Of a stretch of DNA of 64,000 bases, positions 3,492-30,042 are shown piece by piece. Source of the DNA: a virus (Duplodnaviria > Caudoviricetes). The DNA lies in IMG/VR virus record IMGVR_UViG_3300037721_000043, positions 4,162 through 68,161 of that record; one strand, 5' to 3'. A program made the translations under genes and the position numbers. Position 1 is the stretch's first letter, and each line of letters starts with the position of its first letter. The notes beneath the pieces are model-generated. The model did no database searches and was not told the DNA's origin. It was given only the letters and a program-made list of their open reading frames with translations.

Positions 3492-6400
3492 CTAATTTAC
3501 AGGATTTTTAGGCGATTCTATATAGCCAGCTGAAACATAGTGCAGTAGGCTTCTATGGATAACATCTGGAGCTAAAGTAAGCAGCACTTGGATGGCCTTG
3601 CTCCTCATTTTTTGCCCTTCAATTATCGGGTTCACTGTGTTTGGTGTATTCTCATCGTTCTGCATCGGTGCCCAGTACGTATCCTCCTGATCCTCAAACA
3701 TCGTCAGTGGTATGTTCGACTGTTGAATGGTTTTTTGCCCTCTGTACTCACTGATAATCCTTTCCGCCATCCATGGGTCAGTTGCTACTACTGCAAGAGT
3801 CTGCCATGATTTGACCATTATCTGAAGTGGATTGAACACTGGCTCAATCTTAACAGGATATTTCACACCGTAGAATGTGCCATAATCGGGACCGCGCTCA
3901 TGTAGAAATACATTTCCATTAACAAAGCCTATAAACAAATTACCAATCTTAGCGAACCTCTCCGGATTATAACTATGACATCCTTTCCACCGAGTGTCAG
4001 CCTCACTGAATATTGTGCCTTTATAATCTGAATACCCTCTAAAAGATTCCGGCAGCGAGCTGTGGTCAATTCTGGTTACCAGTTCATCGTTGAATGGATC
4101 AAATTCACTAATCACTCGAGGTATCTCATCGGTTATGTACTTGGTCATCAGGAGATCTCCAATTTCCTTAAACCAGTTCCTCATTTTATTATCCGATATT
4201 GCCGTTAACCCATCACGACTGTATCTGATCCAGCTTCCATTAATTGCATCCCAATAATAAACTCGGCCGCGCTTTTTGCTTATACTTTCCGGATTAAGAG
4301 TTCCGAAACTTCCGACCAGCGCATTGAAGCTGCCCAGCACTTTATTGCTCAAAGCAATCTGGGTGTTACCGCTAAGATCCTCTATTGTTGTCCTGTTGAC
4401 ATATATGCTCCACGTCTCTCGTTCTCCAATAGCTAAGAATATAGATCCAACAGATTCGACCTGGGCATTAGTAACGTTTACAAGATCCCGTATCCTTCCG
4501 TATTCTGATGGGTATATGAATTGGTCTTCCTCCCGGAAATTATTGAGGTTGTTAACAAAAGACTCCTCGATAATTTTACCACCAAATCTGACCTGTGTCG
4601 GCTTGAATTTAGCTATTGGATAATTCGAGTATGAAATGCTAGGCCGGCCATTGCCACGGTCCCAGTATCCATATGTCTGACTTCTTAAATTAGTCATGCA
4701 TGGCGAGTTAACTGTTTTCACTTGGCCGCCACCTAACCCCAGATCCCGGTAGTTGGTCTTGCCCATCATTGTACAGTCACCAAGGGAGAAAGGTATCCTG
4801 CTGTACACACGTACAGCCCCATACTCAATACATGTGATGCCGTCGTTATTGGTGTATGTCCAGTCACTTTTTGACCACGTCCTTTGATTTGTTCCCGGGA
4901 ACAATATAGGATACCATTCTCCTGTCTCATAGAATATGTAGTCCGCAGAGTCTGAATCCTTTGGCGTGTACACCTCTATCGTGGCATCCTCTAAAATAAA
5001 ATTAGATCCATTCGATGTAGCGACCCATGCAAGATCATCTGGTTTTTTGCAAATAATAGCCTTCCCGGTAAACTCTAAAATGAGTTCGTCATAAACAGCT
5101 TTTTGCTCCTCCGTCGGATTTACCACTGCGCTACCGACAAATCTTACCCTATCTCCATGTCGGAAATTATAAAAGAGATTATTCATCGGATTATCGACTA
5201 ATCCACTTGCATCTTTTTTACTGGCGTTGTACCAGTTATTAATGTCGAAGTATAGGCGACTTCCATTAGCCATAACGGTAGCCTGAATAGTCTCACGCAT
5301 TTGCATGACCAACTTTGGCGCTATCTTATTCGATAGTAAATACCTATTAAGACTTTTATCCCTATTGGGACTGGTGTCAAAGAAATATTTACCGGCACTA
5401 TCTCTTGTCACCAATCCATTACCTACAAATGGATTTATCCTAGCACTTTGTACTTCATCAACTTTCTGGCTGAATTCATACCCCTCAACTATCCCAGAAT
5501 TCTCAAAATGTTGAGATATTCTGTTTTTCATGTCCTGAGACAAAGTAGTTACGTCATTTAATGCGGCCGCGACATTATCAATGAGCACGGTGGCCTTATT
5601 AAATAAACCGAACATGAAGTAGTCTATGTTCAAACAATTAGTCCTGACAATCTGGTAGGACACTGCCCATTTAGGTGGAATAAAATTTGGGCTTAGTTTG
5701 AACGTCAGGCCATACCCACCTTCCTCTACTTTCTTTTCATTAGGGACAAGGTAAGACCATTCATCGTTGGTATATGTACCGCTGACACGGCCTTTGCTGT
5801 CTGAGAATACTATTCCTACTTTATACCTTCCTCTTGATTTAAATGTATGGTCAGTTATAGAATTTCTTTTAGCTAATTCCTGAGCATCAAGCGCACTCAT
5901 GCCAGTGAATGCAGGTATTACCAAATTCCAGTTATCATTGGTGGTAATCATACTTCTCCTGACGACTCCTATATTCGTCACGATAGGCCTAATCGATGGT
6001 TCGTCCTCATCAAGACAGTCTCCAAATACAAATCTGTTATCAATAGAGTCGACGGTTCCAGCCAGTAACGGTACGGTATCGAAAAGTTGGTAGAAGTCAA
6101 TTTCAGATATCGGGGTTGAATTGGCCTCCCCATAAAAACGTACTACGTTGTCAAACGTACCCCTATTATCAAGAGTTTTGAATAGTCTCCACAGATCTGT
6201 TTCCCCCTCTCGGTACACAATTTCTATGGCCTGTACCGCAGCCACAAATTTAGGGTCAGAGTGATTGAAATAGTTGTACTGACTACCGCTGTCCGGGTTA
6301 TTGTACAATATCCCTGGTATAAATAGTTCTATTGCCGTTATTGATGGAGGGGCGATGTTTGTACCGCTTGATAGTGTCGGCTTGTTGTTAGCCACACTTG

Positions 6401-7517
6401 TCGGGCTAAACCTTGATTTTAGGTTACCTTTATATACATATCGATATGCCCATTGATACACTTTACCCTCAATCTTAGCCCTATTATTTGTGACGCCATC
6501 GTAGTATGCTCTTGTGATCGGCGGCATCGTCGGAGCCCACTTATGGAAACTGATGTGAAACTCTCTAAATTCAGCATCACCAAGAGCAATAAAAAGTTCT
6601 CCTATTTCGTCTGTATTGATAAGTCTTGGTGTATTTATCCTGTCTGTAAAAGCCATCCAGTTGTCTAGTTTCGCGAACTTAACAAATGAATTTTCCTCGA
6701 ATTTTAGCCCAGTCCATCGCAATAGTTCAAATACAACGTTCTGCAGTGGATCGAAATATCGGATAGAGTGGTTACCCGATGAATTATACACCGCGTAATA
6801 CTCTCGCTGAAATTCAACATCCTCGAATATCCCTATCGTCCGTTCATCACCATCTGGCTTACTGGAAAGTGAATACCCATTGATTCTGAAATACTCAAGA
6901 TCCAGGTGCGTTGGGCCCCCTGCGATGCCTTCCAGTCTAATGCCAACTCCAGTACAGTTCTCTGGTAATGATAGTGTTAATGTTTTTTCCTCGTATGTAT
7001 TTACGCCATCAGAGTTAATCTTCACGCTGGATAATACGGATGATCCATTCATGAATACCGCAGACAAACTTACTCCTGACGTAAATCCTTCTATTATTTG
7101 ATACCTAAAGCTAATTGTGACTTTATTGTCGTATGAACCAACAGGCTGATACATTACATTGCTGACAATAGCACCGCTAAGAGCTCCGATTATGATTGCC
7201 CTGTTAGTGCTATACAGCCATGGAGTAGAGCCGGCTGTATGAAGCCATGGGGCAAGTGACCCAACGAAATCCGGGTTAGTAACCAGAGACCCATAGGTTA
7301 TATAATCTGTTACTTCTGAAGTATCTTTTATATGCTCTCCATCCCCAAAAGAGTCAAATCGGCTGGACCCTATTCGCATGTTCAGAGCATATTTATAATC
7401 TCCAACTTGAAACAATGAGTTGCCAGACTCACTGCCTGGGGCTGGAGTTATAATGCTGTCATCCTGATTCATACCGCCAGAGGGTGTGAACATTGATTGC
7501 TCGTTCTGGTCAGCCAT
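3492..7517 (-). CDS. Tail stabilisation/muzzle-like protein (P22 gp10/crAss-like), 1341 aa
   Basis: Size, beta-rich composition, C-terminal ...GQKMRSKAIQVLL...S motif and position after ring proteins. Confidence 0.65.
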   Translation of the reverse strand: MADQNEQSMFTPSGGMNQDDSIITPAPGSESGNSLFQVGDYKYALNMRIGSSRFDSFGDGEHIKDTSEVTDYITYGSLVTNPDFVGSLAPWLHTAGSTPWLYSTNRAIIIGALSGAIVSNVMYQPVGSYDNKVTISFRYQIIEGFTSGVSLSAVFMNGSSVLSSVKINSDGVNTYEEKTLTLSLPENCTGVGIRLEGIAGGPTHLDLEYFRINGYSLSSKPDGDERTIGIFEDVEFQREYYAVYNSSGNHSIRYFDPLQNVVFELLRWTGLKFEENSFVKFAKLDNWMAFTDRINTPRLINTDEIGELFIALGDAEFREFHISFHKWAPTMPPITRAYYDGVTNNRAKIEGKVYQWAYRYVYKGNLKSRFSPTSVANNKPTLSSGTNIAPPSITAIELFIPGILYNNPDSGSQYNYFNHSDPKFVAAVQAIEIVYREGETDLWRLFKTLDNRGTFDNVVRFYGEANSTPISEIDFYQLFDTVPLLAGTVDSIDNRFVFGDCLDEDEPSIRPIVTNIGVVRRSMITTNDNWNLVIPAFTGMSALDAQELAKRNSITDHTFKSRGRYKVGIVFSDSKGRVSGTYTNDEWSYLVPNEKKVEEGGYGLTFKLSPNFIPPKWAVSYQIVRTNCLNIDYFMFGLFNKATVLIDNVAAALNDVTTLSQDMKNRISQHFENSGIVEGYEFSQKVDEVQSARINPFVGNGLVTRDSAGKYFFDTSPNRDKSLNRYLLSNKIAPKLVMQMRETIQATVMANGSRLYFDINNWYNASKKDASGLVDNPMNNLFYNFRHGDRVRFVGSAVVNPTEEQKAVYDELILEFTGKAIICKKPDDLAWVATSNGSNFILEDATIEVYTPKDSDSADYIFYETGEWYPILFPGTNQRTWSKSDWTYTNNDGITCIEYGAVRVYSRIPFSLGDCTMMGKTNYRDLGLGGGQVKTVNSPCMTNLRSQTYGYWDRGNGRPSISYSNYPIAKFKPTQVRFGGKIIEESFVNNLNNFREEDQFIYPSEYGRIRDLVNVTNAQVESVGSIFLAIGERETWSIYVNRTTIEDLSGNTQIALSNKVLGSFNALVGSFGTLNPESISKKRGRVYYWDAINGSWIRYSRDGLTAISDNKMRNWFKEIGDLLMTKYITDEIPRVISEFDPFNDELVTRIDHSSLPESFRGYSDYKGTIFSEADTRWKGCHSYNPERFAKIGNLFIGFVNGNVFLHERGPDYGTFYGVKYPVKIEPVFNPLQIMVKSWQTLAVVATDPWMAERIISEYRGQKTIQQSNIPLTMFEDQEDTYWAPMQNDENTPNTVNPIIEGQKMRSKAIQVLLTLAPDVIHRSLLHYVSAGYIESPKNPVN

Positions 7518-21146: not shown

Positions 21147-21171
21147 AGGCCATTGAATCCAATGGCCAATT
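21147..21171 (-). terminator. Intrinsic terminator
   Basis: GGCCATTG-4nt-CAATGGCC hairpin with an A-tract on its left (U-tract on minus). Confidence 0.7.
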
Positions 21172-22403: not shown

Positions 22404-23861
22404 TTACAGGTTAACGGGTTTGCCGAGGATGTGCTTAGAGGCAGCAACAGTCTGCATACCCATGTGTGCGGCCATGTTGATCTCGCGGTTCAACCGGCGG
22501 TTCGTAGCCCGAGGGCGTGCGTTCGCACCAGTTTCCCAGATCTTATAGTGACCACGGGCACCTTCACCTACTTGTTTTTGGTAGATGATACAGAACGGAT
22601 CGAGCAGTGTGCCTTCTTTGGGGTCGCGCTGCTTCTGCATCGGAGCGATTACAAAGTAATGCGGATACTTGAAGCCAGGCGCACCGGCGAACTTCACGTG
22701 GTTCAGGATTTTCAAGTCCTTCACGTTGTAGGTAAATCCGCCTTTTTTGAACTGCTGGATGTCCAGGTCGATAGCTTGACGATCGTATACCACGCCGCCG
22801 TTTACCCCGAGCTGGGTCACGATAGATTCCATTTTAGAACGGAACTCGTAACCAACCCACAGCATCATGTCTCCACCTTGCTGCAGTTTACGGCGATAGC
22901 GGTTGATCTGGTCGAACATCGCCAGTGTAGGAGTGGTATCATAGTACAGTTTCTGGGCGTTGAGCTCCAGGTTCTGGATATATCCTTGAGTGGTTGTCAC
23001 AAGCTCAGTCGCGCCAGTCTCAGGGTCGATGTGGGTCAAGTTACCGTCATCTTTGTTGGCCAGGAACAGACCGTTGTCGATCTGTGCACCGAACCGGATT
23101 TCGGTGTCGTTGATACCTTTTTCGTAGGTAAATTCGATAAGCTTGCCATTCCAGGTAACAGGATATGTCTCGTTTTGCTCTTGCCAATCGGACACTGTGT
23201 AGTATTCCGAGAATTGTTGCAGGTAGCTTGTGAATGACTTGGTGGTAGGCACCAGGCCTTGGGTCATACCGAGGGTAGCCTCACCGAATGAGTTGGTAGG
23301 CAGGATGAACGGGTTACCGCCATATGTGCCGGCTGTGTTCGTTATGGTCGCTGCCAGGTTAGGCATGGTAGACTGAACTTGTTGCAGATACAGGCGGTGA
23401 GCTGCAGCGATAGTCTCGCGCTTACCGCGGATACGCCACTCCGAGTTGTTGGCGAACAGAATGTTCTGTCCAACGCGTGGGAAGCTTTTTGTGTTGGCAT
23501 ACGGTCCAGAAGTAGGGCTGTGGCTGTCAGCACTTAGCTGAATGTAGGCCAAGCCAACGAATTCGGCAGGGTCACCGTTAATGACCGAGGCAGTACCATA
23601 TACATCCGCCAGGGTAGTAGATGTGTTTACATTCGGCACATCAAAGCGTGAGTTTGCTTCGTGGTGAATAATCTCCTGGCCTTTCACTTCCTTCATCAGC
23701 CCCATTTTCATGAAGTCACCGAAGTCAGTTTCTACCGGGTTTACATCAAACAGCTTACGGCCTACTTGAGGCTTGAGCCAAAACGAGAAGTTGGAGATCA
23801 GGGGATATTTCTCTTCCGCTGCTACCGAGTAATCGTTATATGTATTCGATTCTACTGCCAT
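22404..23861 (-). CDS. Major capsid protein (crAss-like HK97 fold)
   Basis: 485 aa; in portal-scaffold-MCP order; N..QQF...Y.VSD, GY...LE and C-terminal ...MGMQTVAA motifs; followed by a terminator. Confidence 0.8.
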   Translation of the reverse strand: MAVESNTYNDYSVAAEEKYPLISNFSFWLKPQVGRKLFDVNPVETDFGDFMKMGLMKEVKGQEIIHHEANSRFDVPNVNTSTTLADVYGTASVINGDPAEFVGLAYIQLSADSHSPTSGPYANTKSFPRVGQNILFANNSEWRIRGKRETIAAAHRLYLQQVQSTMPNLAATITNTAGTYGGNPFILPTNSFGEATLGMTQGLVPTTKSFTSYLQQFSEYYTVSDWQEQNETYPVTWNGKLIEFTYEKGINDTEIRFGAQIDNGLFLANKDDGNLTHIDPETGATELVTTTQGYIQNLELNAQKLYYDTTPTLAMFDQINRYRRKLQQGGDMMLWVGYEFRSKMESIVTQLGVNGGVVYDRQAIDLDIQQFKKGGFTYNVKDLKILNHVKFAGAPGFKYPHYFVIAPMQKQRDPKEGTLLDPFCIIYQKQVGEGARGHYKIWETGANARPRATNRRLNREINMAAHMGMQTVAASKHILGKPVNL

Positions 23862-23947: not shown

Positions 23948-25183
23948 TTACTTCTTTTTCTTGCTTTTTGCGCGTTCCTCAAGTAGCTTTTCCCACTGTT
24001 CTTCTTCCGACTTAGGTACTTTGGTAGCGTCGCCTCCTTTGGCTTTACGGTTTGGCTTGACCCCTGCGATCTCCTCAATCCGTTTTACCGCTGTTTTTGT
24101 ACTCGACCGTTGCATAAACACCGGTAGAATGTCTTGATAGAACAGGGCGAATGTCATCCGTAGGATGTTCTCTTCAGGATCGAATCCTTCGAGCTTGCCC
24201 TTTTTGTTGTACAATGCAGTGTTATTGACATATGCATTTGCAGCGTCCCGCACCTGCTTCAACTTCTCCGCATCAAGCGCATATACTATTTTCTCGCCAT
24301 CAAAGTCAGCGGTGACTTGCTTGAACTCCTTCATGAATGCATTCAGTGCACGGGTATTCTCTGCGACACCCTCTTTTACTGCTTCGCTTTCTTTTGGGCT
24401 TTCGTCTGTCGACTCCTCTGCTTTATATGACTGTTGTTGCTTTTTTAAGAACTCCTTTGCTCTTGCACCCTCTGACTTCAGATCTATCTTACGATCCTCT
24501 TCTTCTTCCTGGCGGTCTTTGTCGTTATCAAAGTCTTCCGCTTTGACGGTGTATTTACGGCTGTATTCCTTCTCAAACTTACGTGTAGCCTCGTCCCGGG
24601 TGAGCTCTGGATGTTTGATCACATACTGCATCTTCAGTGCCAGCTTCGGATCAGTATTATCAACATCCATTTGTGTGAGCTCAGCCCAGGTTTGGAGCCC
24701 CTCACCATGACGTGTTTTGGGCATATCCTTGATGAACTCGTATGCTTTTTCCTGCTCAGGGGTCTCAAAGGCCAGTTTCGGCTTAGCCTTTTTTACCTCT
24801 TCAAGCTCCTTCTCAAGCTCCTCGTTGTGCTCAACTATTTTGTCCAGCGTAGCGAGTGTCTGCTCGAGTTCCTCCATGGAGTTGATCTCATAATCTTCTC
24901 CAAATTTAGATTTTATGACTTCGTCGATGTCTTCGGTCTCCTCACTTTCCTCCTCTTCTTCCTCCGACTCTTCTTCGCTTTCCTCTTCGGTTTCTTCCTC
25001 TTCCTCGGATTCCTCTTCTTTCTCCTCCTTCTTGCCTTTATTCTTCGCCTCCGGCTCTTCGGTCTCCTCTTCTTCTTCCTCAACCTCTTCTTCGGTTTCT
25101 ACTTCTTCTGTGGCAGCATCTTCCAAAGTGCCTACTTCCGTGTCGAGTTCATTGGCATCATAGACTTTATCCCCTTTTCCCAT
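23948..25183 (-). CDS. Putative capsid scaffolding protein
   Basis: Extreme Glu-rich N-terminus, helical; lies between portal and MCP. Confidence 0.65.
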   Translation of the reverse strand: MGKGDKVYDANELDTEVGTLEDAATEEVETEEEVEEEEEETEEPEAKNKGKKEEKEEESEEEEETEEESEEESEEEEEESEETEDIDEVIKSKFGEDYEINSMEELEQTLATLDKIVEHNEELEKELEEVKKAKPKLAFETPEQEKAYEFIKDMPKTRHGEGLQTWAELTQMDVDNTDPKLALKMQYVIKHPELTRDEATRKFEKEYSRKYTVKAEDFDNDKDRQEEEEDRKIDLKSEGARAKEFLKKQQQSYKAEESTDESPKESEAVKEGVAENTRALNAFMKEFKQVTADFDGEKIVYALDAEKLKQVRDAANAYVNNTALYNKKGKLEGFDPEENILRMTFALFYQDILPVFMQRSSTKTAVKRIEEIAGVKPNRKAKGGDATKVPKSEEEQWEKLLEERAKSKKKK

Positions 25184-25236
25184 ATATGTAATTTTGTACC
25201 AATTTCGGAAAGTTTCTCTGAATTATCAAAAAGGGC

Positions 25237-25252
25237 ATGTTCCACGTGGAAC
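25237..25252. promoter_or_regulatory. parS: parS centromere-like site
   Basis: TGTTCCACGTGGAACA, an exact 16-bp match to a known chromosomal parS variant. Intergenic; the palindrome extends to 20 bp (25235-25254). Confidence 0.75.
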
Positions 25253-25258
25253 ATGTAA

Positions 25259-27601
25259 TTAATCTCCTGGGCTTTTATCAGCCCGCTTATCCACCTTTTC
25301 GCGCTCGACAGTATTCCTCATCCCCTGCTTAATTATCTCGTCCGTTCCCTTCTGCTTCTCAATCACCTTCTTCATGTAGCTCGTGTTATCCATGATCGAT
25401 GCATCCGCCTGCTTCACCGCCAGTTGGTTGTTGAGCTTGATCTTGCCGTCGAGGATCAGCAACTCGCGCTTGATATCTCCCTCGCGCTGCATGTAGGCTA
25501 AGTCCATCTCCATCTTGGCGCCAGCTTGTTGAGCGGTTGCCTCAGCCTGCATTTGAGACATTTGGCTTTGTTCCTCCATACGATTTCGGCGGTGTTGCTT
25601 CTCACGGATAACCATGATCTGCCTGGCCTGTTTGAGATTGTCGATCTCGCGCAAGAAGATACTGTCTGAGAGACTGATCTTATCTCCCTCAAGCGCTATT
25701 CTGACATCCTGATAGAACTCTGCCCACTCTTCTGGACCAGGCTGACGGCCGAATATCATGCCGTACTCACAGTAGGCTACGTCCTCTGATACCTCGTGGT
25801 AAGAAGTATTTACCTTACCTAGCGCCGGTAAGAATCCCCTAATCTTTTTCTTGTTCCTGATTGTCTCCTGCATCATCAACAGCACCACATGGGCTGTCCG
25901 CTGATACAGGTACTCATGAGCGTTGTACAAGTACTCCATATCCAGGTCGCCGGAGAACTGGGACTGCTTGACTGCAGCTGCCGGCAGTCTATCCGGAACG
26001 TCTGCGGACTCCGCGATGGAAGTACCGGTCATCTGCTCCAGAAGGTTTATAGAGACGGAGAGGGTGTTAAAATAGTCAGATAGGTCGACGCCTGTAGACT
26101 GGTAACTCACCGCCCGGCCATTTGTCTGCCCGTATGGGTTGGTGACTCCTCTTGTGATCAATGTATTCGACATCTCGAAGTACTCATAAACCTCGCGTTG
26201 GCTCCATACTCGGCCACCTCGGCCCATGGCAACGGCCTCTATCTCACTGAAGTTTACCTCCCGAAGACCGATCCATCCCTTTGCCAAGGTCTCTTTTATC
26301 TTATTCCAGGCGACATTTATCATGTACACCGGCTCCACCATCTGGGAGGCAAAGCTTACTGACCGGCCCTCTTTGAAGTTGGTGGCGAATGTTTTTATCG
26401 GCAGCGTGGCATTCACCAGGTTTGTCCGTGGGTATTCCTTTCGGCCGTACCCAAATACGATATCACTGTCAATGATCCAGGTACCTCCGTAAACGCTTGT
26501 GTATTGTGCCTTATGGGCTGTTGAGTCTCCTCCTTCATTGTACCGGGCAGCAACTTTCTCATCAGGCACCCAGTCACAATCGCGCTCCATGATGGTGTCG
26601 CCTCCGAATTGGTTCTTACGGGTTACGAACGTGCGGTTGTCCTCCGAAAGGAAGTAGAACCGCATAACGGGGATGTAGGTGAGGTTATCGTATTCAGCGA
26701 GCGTGCGCTGGTCGAGGTAGCTATTGGTCGCAGAGTTCTTGATGCCGTACTGCTGGACGATCTTCTGCATGCTGTCCTGGTCCATACTGCCGGTTGCCTC
26801 CCGTATGAACTGGGTAGGGGTGATGCATTCTATGAAGCCGGCGTACTCCTGGTCCTCGTAGTCATCATTGTCGATGTATGAACCTATCCAGTACTTCGGG
26901 TTTACCCGCTCTATGCGGGGTACCCCGTTCAGATCGGTAAAGCAATGTAGGTGCCCGCGGCCGTAAACGACCAAATCCCAGTCAACCTCGCGCAGCTTCT
27001 GCATGAACCGATTGATCCATAGGACAAGCTTTAATGCGAGCTCCCCAGCGATCTCCTTCTTGATCTTGGGGTTGACGGTCATGTCGTAGATTAGCTCGTC
27101 AGCGTACTTGGGCAGGCTCTCTATGTCGAGTCCCGGGAAGGCCGCCTGTGGTGATACGCCGATACGCTCAACCCAGTCTTTAAGCCGGTAGAACGCCTGT
27201 ACAGAGGCGGCGTAGTCGGCCTTCTCATCTAAGGAGAGTAAGTCGATCGACTCCAGGCTGATGTCATAATTGAGTCGCTGCATCTTAGCAACAGCGCGAT
27301 TTATGTACTTCGGCGCCAAGTTCAGCGTTTGGATGTCGATGTAGGCTAACGATGCCGGGCCGTCCTGGAATCCGGGGCTATTCGGGTCCGCGTGGAACCC
27401 CATCAGCTTCCTGATATTGGTCACCGATTGGCGGCCTTGCGCGAATTCCGTCAGGGATTGGTAGTCGGTATTGTCGTAAAGGCTTCTGAAACCATACCGG
27501 TTATTGGTATAGTACATTGCCTTTGCATACTTGTTGCCATATTCCGCAACTTCTTTATCCTTTGGATTTACAAACTCACTAGGGAAAGGATATGCATCCA
27601 T
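25259..27601 (-). CDS. Portal protein
   Basis: 780 aa; FP.E.V...DK N-terminus, LAPKYIN, C-terminal Q-rich coiled coil; between terminase and scaffold. Confidence 0.8.
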   Translation of the reverse strand: MDAYPFPSEFVNPKDKEVAEYGNKYAKAMYYTNNRYGFRSLYDNTDYQSLTEFAQGRQSVTNIRKLMGFHADPNSPGFQDGPASLAYIDIQTLNLAPKYINRAVAKMQRLNYDISLESIDLLSLDEKADYAASVQAFYRLKDWVERIGVSPQAAFPGLDIESLPKYADELIYDMTVNPKIKKEIAGELALKLVLWINRFMQKLREVDWDLVVYGRGHLHCFTDLNGVPRIERVNPKYWIGSYIDNDDYEDQEYAGFIECITPTQFIREATGSMDQDSMQKIVQQYGIKNSATNSYLDQRTLAEYDNLTYIPVMRFYFLSEDNRTFVTRKNQFGGDTIMERDCDWVPDEKVAARYNEGGDSTAHKAQYTSVYGGTWIIDSDIVFGYGRKEYPRTNLVNATLPIKTFATNFKEGRSVSFASQMVEPVYMINVAWNKIKETLAKGWIGLREVNFSEIEAVAMGRGGRVWSQREVYEYFEMSNTLITRGVTNPYGQTNGRAVSYQSTGVDLSDYFNTLSVSINLLEQMTGTSIAESADVPDRLPAAAVKQSQFSGDLDMEYLYNAHEYLYQRTAHVVLLMMQETIRNKKKIRGFLPALGKVNTSYHEVSEDVAYCEYGMIFGRQPGPEEWAEFYQDVRIALEGDKISLSDSIFLREIDNLKQARQIMVIREKQHRRNRMEEQSQMSQMQAEATAQQAGAKMEMDLAYMQREGDIKRELLILDGKIKLNNQLAVKQADASIMDNTSYMKKVIEKQKGTDEIIKQGMRNTVEREKVDKRADKSPGD

Positions 27602-27880
27602 TTAAAATATCTTTTGAAAGATTTCGAAAGGCACTATCGCCTTCCCGTCCGACGGATCAGTAAACAAATAATCACCCCTGTTGCCTTGAAAGTTACCTAA
27701 TTTAGTGTGGATTTCGAAATCATCCACCATTTGCTTGTATCGGATGTACTTTGGTTTGTCAAGCCCAGGGTATAAATTAAGCTCCGACATCTTGCCTTCG
27801 AAGTGCTCCTGCAGCTTCTTTACCTGACCTTTTGTTTCGACCGGAATCCAGCTGTTGATATGATCATCGTTTATCGTCAT
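27602..27880 (-). CDS. Small hypothetical protein (PGDYG-like motif)
   Basis: GNRGDYL...VPFEIFQKIF resembles the GDY...IF.KTY family. Confidence 0.45.
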   Translation of the reverse strand: MTINDDHINSWIPVETKGQVKKLQEHFEGKMSELNLYPGLDKPKYIRYKQMVDDFEIHTKLGNFQGNRGDYLFTDPSDGKAIVPFEIFQKIF

Positions 27881-30042
27881 CGGTTTATCACCTCCCCATT
27901 GTTATTGAAAGCATTCATGAATCCATCCAGGTCCATCGGGGCTATTGCCTTGCGCTTCGGTGCGATCTTCCCAGCAAGCTCCGTCCACCCGCTTGCTACG
28001 GCGTAGTCAAACTCCCGGGTCTTGGCCGGGTTGAATGCCAGTAGATCGCTGACCTGCTCTTTGAACTTAAAGGTATGTCCAAAATACTCAATATAAGTGG
28101 CCAGGGCGCTGGTGTACTCCGAAATAGTCATGGTATTGGCTGGCGTCCCCTCGTCGCTGGCGGTGGAGTATTTCTTCTTGGGCTCATCTAGGGGTTTGTA
28201 TTTTGGCAGCACAAAGGCCCCACAGTTGTTGTTGTGTAGATAGCTGATCGTGCCTGGCTTCTGGCTCTCAATATTTATCGGTACACCGAAATACCAGCAA
28301 ATCAAAAGCACCCGTTCGTACAGGACGTTCGGATCGTTCGGCCTGGTATCCATCATCAGGAAGTAAATACCGGTCTCGTATTGCTTCTTTATCTTGGCAT
28401 TCTCAATCATGTCCTCATGCGTGAGCGGGCCGTCGATTGATGAGTCGTAGTTTCGCTTGACAAATAACACCGGGCGCGACCTACGGGAGGACACGAACTC
28501 ATCCGCCCCCATGCGGTCCTCGGTTACGTGGCCGTGGTCAATAGGGTCAATGCCACAGGAGAACTTCGCGTAGTTTTTCGGGGCGTACTGGGTCTCCCCG
28601 CCGATGATCCTTGTTTCTACCTGGTTGTCCAATCTGTCTATCTCTCTCGGCATCCAGCTGGTTTTAGCCCACCCGTTTACTGGATTATGACGCCATCCGA
28701 CCTTTCCGAATCGGATATTGTTCTCCCAGAAGAACTCAATCTTATGGATATTGTCATCACCGGAGATGGTGAGGCTGGTTAGGCACTCCTGCAGCACGGT
28801 CGCGTTAAACTCGCAGTTCTCAGCGTTGACATAAAATATCTCGTACAGGTACAGTGGGTACTTCCGGATGATAGCCGAGTAATCTTCCGGGACATCTTTA
28901 CAGGACTCCCGCTCATCCAGGATAAACTTCTTAGCCTGCTCGCGCATTGGCCGGCCGTGGGCATCGAAGTAACCTTCCAAGGCACAGTCACCCGGCAGAA
29001 ACGCCGCGTACAGACCTGTCTTGGTTCGTCCGTCGGGGCCGCGGTCATTGTAGTCGCTGGAGAAGAACATCTTCTGGTAGGCCTTACCGCCTTTCCCACG
29101 GGTCTCCATAAACTCCACCGTGGTGCCCATGAAGCACTTGCCGCGAATGTAGATACCTCGCTTCAAGCATGGCTTAACGATGGCCCAGCGCTTATCTACG
29201 TTGGCCACAAGGGTCTTTCCGGGCTCCTCCATGATGTAGGAGTTCAGACGGGCCTGGTCATAGGCGCCTTCTTTGGATACCCGGTGATCGATCTTGGACT
29301 CAAGTACATCGACCTCTTCGGCGTCGAACTTCTGGCCACGCTTAGGAGGGTTAAAAAAGTCGATGCCTTCCAACTGCTTGGAGGTGGTGTCGTACGTCGG
29401 CTTGAAGTATTGGGGTAGCTTGTAGAACGGCTGACGGATGTGCTCATCATAGAAGGAGAATATCTTGTCATCATTCTCCCCCTGCATGCCGGCATTGTGT
29501 TTGTGGTTGCGGATAGTCCGAAACACGATCCAGGCACCCATTAGCGCGGACTTACCGTACCGGCGGATGGTATTGAGCATGCCGCCAAAAGCGTTAGGAT
29601 CTTCTTCCCAGAACTGTATCCAGTAGGTGATCTCTTTGTCCGTCTCCCGGTATTCCGGAGTTCCGAATAGCGGCTCCCATGCGGTCATGTAGAACGCATA
29701 GAACGTAGTCATATAGGTCTTGACGTTGTCGTTCCAAAACCAGATTCCGTTCTCAGTCCATCCCCAGTGCTTCTCTATCCATGCGTCCATCTCACCCATA
29801 AATGGGCTGATGAAGTCCGGATCGAACATCTTCTTATTCTCTGGATCAGTCTTGAATATCCACTCCCGGTAAGCCTTTTTAAGGTACCCGGGCATCTCTG
29901 GTCGGGTCCACTTCTGCTCTTCTTTGAACAGTATTTCATCGTCCGGCGGAGGCTCTGGCAGGTAAACTTTCTCTATCCCGGGGCCAGTGATGCCGGTTAT
30001 TAGGTATTGGAATTGATATTCGTTGCTGGTGGGATTAAACAT
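27877..30042 (-). CDS. terL: Terminase large subunit
   Basis: Walker A-like RRYGKS, Walker B-like YIMEEPGK, nuclease GIDPID and C-terminal D.AVASG. Confidence 0.9.
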   Translation of the reverse strand: MFNPTSNEYQFQYLITGITGPGIEKVYLPEPPPDDEILFKEEQKWTRPEMPGYLKKAYREWIFKTDPENKKMFDPDFISPFMGEMDAWIEKHWGWTENGIWFWNDNVKTYMTTFYAFYMTAWEPLFGTPEYRETDKEITYWIQFWEEDPNAFGGMLNTIRRYGKSALMGAWIVFRTIRNHKHNAGMQGENDDKIFSFYDEHIRQPFYKLPQYFKPTYDTTSKQLEGIDFFNPPKRGQKFDAEEVDVLESKIDHRVSKEGAYDQARLNSYIMEEPGKTLVANVDKRWAIVKPCLKRGIYIRGKCFMGTTVEFMETRGKGGKAYQKMFFSSDYNDRGPDGRTKTGLYAAFLPGDCALEGYFDAHGRPMREQAKKFILDERESCKDVPEDYSAIIRKYPLYLYEIFYVNAENCEFNATVLQECLTSLTISGDDNIHKIEFFWENNIRFGKVGWRHNPVNGWAKTSWMPREIDRLDNQVETRIIGGETQYAPKNYAKFSCGIDPIDHGHVTEDRMGADEFVSSRRSRPVLFVKRNYDSSIDGPLTHEDMIENAKIKKQYETGIYFLMMDTRPNDPNVLYERVLLICWYFGVPINIESQKPGTISYLHNNNCGAFVLPKYKPLDEPKKKYSTASDEGTPANTMTISEYTSALATYIEYFGHTFKFKEQVSDLLAFNPAKTREFDYAVASGWTELAGKIAPKRKAIAPMDLDGFMNAFNNNGEVINR

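Follow-up and report, generated by a model that had tools for sequence, protein, structure and literature searches.

The locus considered here raises the question of why an uncultured tailed phage with no recognizable partition gene should carry, directly after its portal gene, a sequence that bacterial chromosomes use as a ParB-binding site. The stretch of DNA analyzed, referred to as the window, has a length of 64,000 nucleotides and comprises bases 4162-68161 of a linear IMG/VR record of 68,161 bp that was estimated by CheckV to be about 88% complete. The 16-mer TGTTCCACGTGGAACA is located at positions 25238-25253, in the gap between the stop codon of the portal gene and the start codon of a 411-aa ORF, and matches the consensus for chromosomal parS sites, TGTTNCACGTGNAACA (as quoted from Livny et al. 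2007 in PMC10197239), without a single mismatch. The 16-mer is extended to a 20-bp perfect palindrome, CATGTTCCACGTGGAACATG (25236-25255), which is the longest perfect palindrome of the window; neither element is assigned to a strand. Read on the minus strand, the gap has the structure TAA-TTA-CATGTTCCACGTGGAACATG-CCC-TTTTTGATAATTCAGAGAAACTTTCCGAAATTGGTACAAAATTACATAT-ATG. The first-pass annotation had reported a parS sequence in a gap of 75 nt between the portal gene and a scaffold-like gene, and both the sequence and the size of the gap were confirmed; the coordinates 25235-25254 assigned to it were a few bases off. A second site with three or fewer mismatches to TGTTNCACGTGNAACA was not present in the window, and a second exact copy of the consensus was not present in the whole record. 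The window also contains a 16-bp perfect palindrome, TTGTTCCCGGGAACAA (4889-4904), inside a 1341-aa ORF (3492-7517). Its arms are similar to parS half-sites and its CCCGGG core is similar to a Noc-binding site, a resemblance that may be due to chance.

The late genes of the window lie on the minus strand. Upstream of the site, they comprise genes for the terminase large subunit (27877-30042; phrog_6681, E = 5e-41), a small ORF (27602-27880), and the 780-aa portal protein (25259-27601; phrog_6547, E = 1e-56). The match of the latter to P22_portal was weak, with 21.7 bits against a cut-off of 26.1. The 411-aa ORF immediately downstream (23948-25183, minus strand) encodes an acidic protein with a Glu-rich N-terminal region and matched no family in Pfam or PHROG. 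It is called scaffold-like by position only, being situated between the portal gene and the gene for a 485-aa virion structural protein (22404-23861, minus strand; phrog_13704, E = 9e-10), which is a candidate major capsid protein. Relatives of the phage possess orthologous ORFs of 407-436 aa after their portal genes. Elsewhere, the record encodes helicases, a RecT/exonuclease pair, a primase-helicase, an HNH endonuclease, and a DNA methyltransferase. Profiles for ParB_N, HTH_ParB, CbiA/ParA, AAA_31, tyrosine integrase, and resolvase gave no match in this record, in which a gene could be missing given its completeness of about 88%. Within that limit, the earlier statement that parA and parB are absent holds, and cognate parA and parB genes, as would make up a self-encoded ParABS system, were not found on the replicon. 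Any effect of the site in a phage without ParB or ParA must come through host proteins.

None of the phage genomes in INPHARED was similar to the region at the DNA level. The 176 portal homologues detected were mostly located on contigs of about 73-82 kb. The nearest cultured relatives, Cellulophaga phages phi46:3 and phi13:2 and Maribacter phage Panino, are very distant (21-24% identity), and one member of the family, a contig of 77,957 bp, had been binned with a Cyclobacteriaceae metagenome-assembled genome (MAG; G001). These indications, slight as they are, suggest that the host is probably a member of the Bacteroidota. A proposed connection to the carrier states of crAss-like phages found no support. 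The phage belongs to a family with genomes of about 75-82 kb that is only distantly related to the Cellulophaga phi46:3-like podophages.

The occurrence of the 16-mer on chromosomes of the probable host group was analyzed in a sample of 301 genomes from the phylum of G001. The exact 16-mer was present in 22 of these genomes, whereas the reversed control sequence was present in none, in accordance with the claim that it is an established chromosomal variant in Bacteroidetes. The chromosomal copies were often paired, with distances of about 1.9 kb or 40-60 bp, and G001 contained clustered sites with one mismatch, for example TGTTCCACGTGGAtCA. Paired exact copies were noticed in G296, G292, G164, G116, G040, G254, and G046. 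A canonical ParB of about 300 aa was encoded in all five parS-bearing genomes that were checked. A parB gene adjoined the paired sites in none of the five genomes checked and was located far away in G296, G292, G164, and G116; adjacency of parB was consequently unusable as a validation of chromosomal parS sites. The sequences flanking 21 chromosomal copies were variable, and the CA and TG flanks of the phage palindrome were found in none of them. An extended host consensus matching the 20-mer was thus ruled out, implying that the 20-bp extension was not copied from a host consensus. By its sequence, the phage 16-mer is a parS of the host chromosomal type.

Conservation of the site among relatives had been set beforehand as a test on which the proposed function could fail, and the site was not conserved. 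The nearest relative compared, L031, is a 3-kb metagenome contig with 84% identity in the portal protein and 75% DNA identity over 3 kb; closer portal homologues on Logan contigs, P0002 (89%) and P0003 (86%), were outside this comparison. The alignment with L031 shows a 23-bp gap over window positions 25234-25256, and the whole palindrome is gone. When the two sequences were read directly, 26 nt in the window corresponded to 3-4 nt in L031. The intergenic region is otherwise kept, with an identity of about 92% over the 50 nt at its 3' end, which is above the value for coding DNA (75% in the flanking 3 kb). This conserved leader, TTTTTGATAATTCAGAGAAACTTTCCGAAATTGGTACAAAATTACATAT (25184-25232, minus strand), separates the palindrome from the start codon of the scaffold-like gene and is probably a promoter, a 5' UTR, or a ribosome-binding region serving the scaffold and capsid genes. 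The gap contained no match to the strict form of the Bacteroidota promoter (TTTG, 17-21 nt, TANNTTTG; TTTG/TAnnTTTG), and a conserved 22-mer of the leader had no match when scanned against IMG/VR. As judged by its identity relative to the surrounding coding DNA, the leader appears to be under selection.

The wider family gave the same picture. A search of IMG/VR with the single portal protein yielded no match, and a profile search yielded 19 loci with 40-54% portal identity, in none of which a parS-like site was present at a distance of up to 4 kb from the portal gene. In whole related records, sites with at most one mismatch were absent from 15 of 16. The remaining record, G352, is the closest relative in IMG/VR and has a one-mismatch site, TGTTCCACGTGAAATA, at an unrelated locus (L157, 1501-1530), directly after the stop codon of an N6/N4 DNA methyltransferase gene; a further half-site, TGTTCCACG, follows 3 nt on. 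The locus of the MAG-binned relative contained no site with up to two mismatches, and the near-matches in the MAG were located on other contigs. On the evidence of these comparisons, the site is a lineage-specific indel that arose recently, by gain or by loss, and does not belong to the core of the phage family.

A site with this distribution might be a functionless and short-lived passenger, i.e. a patch of host-type parS that entered the genome by illegitimate recombination and is now being lost. Host ParB might then still bind to it, either without benefit to the phage or at a slight cost. Presence in one genome, absence from L031 and from the wider family, and the single copy all agree with such an origin, and perfect palindromes are prone to deletion. 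A patch taken from a host chromosome is harder to reconcile with the CA and TG flanks, which match none of the 21 Bacteroidota copies examined, and no donor was identified. In addition, other phage lineages have retained the site while diverging, and it shows a strong intergenic bias, as detailed below; both observations point to selection acting on sites of this kind in general. We consider a mere passenger to be a rather unlikely explanation.

The palindrome could also act at the level of RNA. In the minus-strand transcript, it can form a hairpin with an 8-bp stem containing four GC pairs and an ACGU loop, with a calculated energy of -11.1 kcal/mol (z = -4.65). A run of five U begins 3 nt past the stem, and the hairpin was flagged as terminator-like. 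The alternative already voiced in the first-pass annotation, that the sequence acts only as a hairpin terminator, was correct insofar as the hairpin is real, but the hairpin is weak, its U-run is offset by 3 nt, and the T-run, which is part of the conserved leader, also occurs in L031, where the hairpin is missing. More broadly stated, the element could be a weak intrinsic terminator, an attenuator, or an mRNA-stabilizing hairpin, its identity with parS being incidental. The stem with its 4-nt loop, followed by CCCUUUUUG, fits such a role, as does a similar terminator with an 8-bp stem and a 4-nt loop in the same operon (21148-21167). Furthermore, a strong GC-rich hairpin with a T-run follows the portal gene in several relatives, namely L014, L017, L018, L019, L022, and L023. 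Like the Rho-independent terminators of phage head genes, the site follows a head gene in a co-directional gap and combines a hairpin with a T-run. It differs from them by its moderate stem, by a T-run that is offset into the neighboring leader, and by its exact parS spelling, which a terminator does not need. It is also weaker than the two clear terminators of the window, with values of -16.3 and -17.3 kcal/mol. Taken together with two further observations on other phages given below, this renders a role exclusively at the RNA level improbable.

A survey of viral contigs provided independent information. The exact 16-mer was present in at least 120 IMG/VR contigs, compared with three contigs for the reversed control palindrome and 66 contigs for the control in which CG was changed to GC (TGTTCCAGCTGGAACA). 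Enrichment in raw counts was rejected as an argument because its size depended on which control was chosen, and the intergenic fraction was used instead. The two controls are matched in composition and yet differ 22-fold, the commoner one residing mostly inside genes in a single reading frame. When enrichment of a short motif in viral contigs is claimed, several controls are therefore needed, and sites have to be divided according to coding status. The sites were dereplicated by their flanks into lineages, and genes were called by a crude longest-ORF heuristic. With these gene calls and among the matches listed, parS was intergenic in 37 of 92 lineages and non-coding-like in 56 of them, whereas the CG-to-GC control was intergenic in one and non-coding-like in seven of 46 lineages (Fisher p = 4e-7 and p = 2e-7, respectively). 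This difference speaks against an exclusive RNA function because the control sequences are equally foldable. It also bears on the role of chance. The earlier argument that an exact match in 64 kb is very unlikely stands as such, but a few chance matches are expected over the billions of bases scanned, and chance is therefore better judged from the viral contigs. The parS sequence of the phage is almost certainly not a chance match.

Among the matches listed, ParB_N was encoded in two of the 50 parS-bearing viral records of at least 15 kb and in one of the 17 of these records that were at least 90% complete. The 102 genes flanking intergenic-like sites among the matches listed most commonly belonged to the Pfam families of capsid proteins, terminase, and portal; neither ParB nor ParA was found among them. 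The identical 16-mer was present in phages with GC contents ranging from 0.23 to 0.71 and with very different gene content.

One of the other lineages allowed the parS sequence to be separated from a terminator. In seven contigs (L065, L068, L149, L150, L123, L143, and L085), the capsid proteins diverge from 98% down to 60% identity, and the exact 16-mer is kept. The arrangement in this lineage consists of the stop codon of the capsid gene, a GC-rich terminator, the exact 16-mer, a spacer of about 30 nt, and the next gene; in the most divergent member, the distance from the 16-mer to the next gene is about 70 nt. The sequence of the terminator differs between the members, while the 16-mer beside it is constant. 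As far as the comparison of these contigs goes, the 16-mer is thus kept for its sequence and is not a terminator, which again argues against reading the phage site solely as an RNA element.

A constant sequence next to a gene start could also serve as the operator of a DNA-binding protein that the phage itself encodes and that has no relation to ParB; in the phage studied here, it would control the adjacent leader of the scaffold and capsid genes. The leader that the site abuts does exceed the surrounding coding DNA in conservation. In the lineage with about 38% GC and contigs of up to 105 kb, the intergenic region is apparently a divergent one and the distance from the 16-mer to the gene start downstream is about 30 nt, which is likewise compatible with an operator. 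Regulation of this kind is nevertheless highly improbable in our opinion: the phage has one copy only, no candidate phage protein was identified, and for a sequence that is identical across phages of such different GC content, a universal host protein is a simpler partner than many unrelated phage regulators. In the lineage just mentioned (L046, L063, L101, L105, L106, L107, L113, L119, and L141), the 16-mer is extended to AATTGTTCCACGTGGAACAATGG. The contigs have direct terminal repeats. The position of the site is operator-like rather than terminator-like. ParB_N was not found in the two 105-kb records of this lineage that were tested.

The explanation that we prefer is a docking site for host ParB of the kind known from phi29, recently gained or lost, located just upstream of the conserved late leader, and perhaps having a minor additional role as an RNA hairpin. 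We are evenly divided between accepting and doubting it. A ParB dimer bound to parS closes as a CTP clamp and slides onto the flanking DNA. In the phage, a dimer of the host's chromosomal ParB would nucleate on the orphan parS, and the CTP clamp would then slide onto the flanking phage DNA. The likeliest benefit would be that phage DNA which has not integrated is positioned in dividing cells or passed on to their progeny, as in a carrier state or pseudolysogeny. Secondarily, ParB might dampen the late leader next to the site, and the hairpin in the transcript may slightly attenuate read-through from the portal gene. Binding of ParB in vivo and any benefit to the phage are what we infer from this arrangement. 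The roles put forward in the first-pass annotation, namely segregation, titration of ParB, and repression of late genes, are hypothetical in the same sense. To our knowledge, experimental support for the borrowing of host ParB has so far come only from phi29 and its relatives.

The virulent Bacillus phage phi29 carries five parS sites of the host type, and the host protein Spo0J helps to bring the phage genome into the prespore by segregation (Meijer et al. 2005, as summarized in PMC2731898). Phage phi29 and its relative Nf are phages of the lytic type that bear the parS of the host chromosome without having a ParB of their own, and the role shown for the five sites of phi29 is the trapping of the genome in the Bacillus spore. 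By analogy with this precedent, as described there, the suggestion that our phage borrows host ParB is plausible. Like these phages, the record analyzed here has a host-type parS on a genome without ParB or ParA, as far as can be judged at a completeness of about 88%. Unlike phi29, the phage has a single site and probably infects a non-sporulating member of the Bacteroidota. The presence of several sites per genome and their conservation among relatives, as in phi29-type phages, contrasts with the single site found here and its absence from L031 and 15 of the 16 related records. The single copy, as opposed to five in phi29 and to the usual clusters on chromosomes, weighs against a docking site, as does the fact that it occupies a slot where relatives often have ordinary terminators.

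Other partition systems resemble the proposed docking site in part. The sequence of the phage site is identical to the chromosomal parS in complexes with the ParB (Spo0J) CTP clamp. It differs from chromosomal parS in being carried by a phage genome, where it occurs only once, away from any chromosomal origin and unaccompanied by a cognate parAB on that replicon. The plasmid prophages or phage-plasmids P1, P7, and N15 have their own ParA, their own ParB, and their own type of site. A centromere-like site on the phage genome is common to them and the phage studied here; in contrast to them, the record contains neither parA nor parB, and its site is of the host chromosomal type. The mobile element SGI1 hijacks the parABS system of IncC plasmids (PMC10954446) and thus, as proposed for our phage, has a centromere site served by the partition proteins of another replicon. 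SGI1 is an integrative mobilizable element that makes use of a helper plasmid, whereas the phage would use the system of the host chromosome. If host ParB does load onto the site, a Bacteroidota phage that looks lytic would possess a ready means of having the segregation machinery of its host position its unintegrated genome or pass it on, which would bear on persistence in a carrier state.

A more general proposal can be put forward tentatively, and we regard it as possible but somewhat doubtful. Orphan parS sites of the host type may be a widespread and repeatedly acquired device of ParB-less tailed phages across phyla, including those of non-sporulating Bacteroidota. Such sites would sit in a few intergenic slots of the head module next to terminators, would be quickly gained and lost, and would load host ParB, and possibly SMC or ParA, in order to position, compact, or pass on unintegrated genomes. 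Were this the case, the spore entrapment of phi29 would be generalized to a common mechanism of carrier states. The literature searched, the coverage of which was incomplete, contained no general survey of host-type parS sites in phages. The site described here is a poor flagship for the proposal because the nearest compared relative, L031, lacks it. The finding of the 16-mer in intergenic positions in dozens of unrelated ParB-less viral lineages makes the question a general and testable one.

Not only the 16-mer but also the complete 20-mer of the phage recurred in other viral contigs. An identical 20-mer was found beside the connector gene of a phi29-like contig. In two P22-like contigs with 53% GC, L005 (3518-3537) and L003, a P22-like portal gene comes first, and an identical CATGTTCCACGTGGAACATG follows downstream between a 307-aa ORF in scaffold position and the gene for a P22-type coat protein. 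In these unrelated phages, the site is thus again located in the head module.
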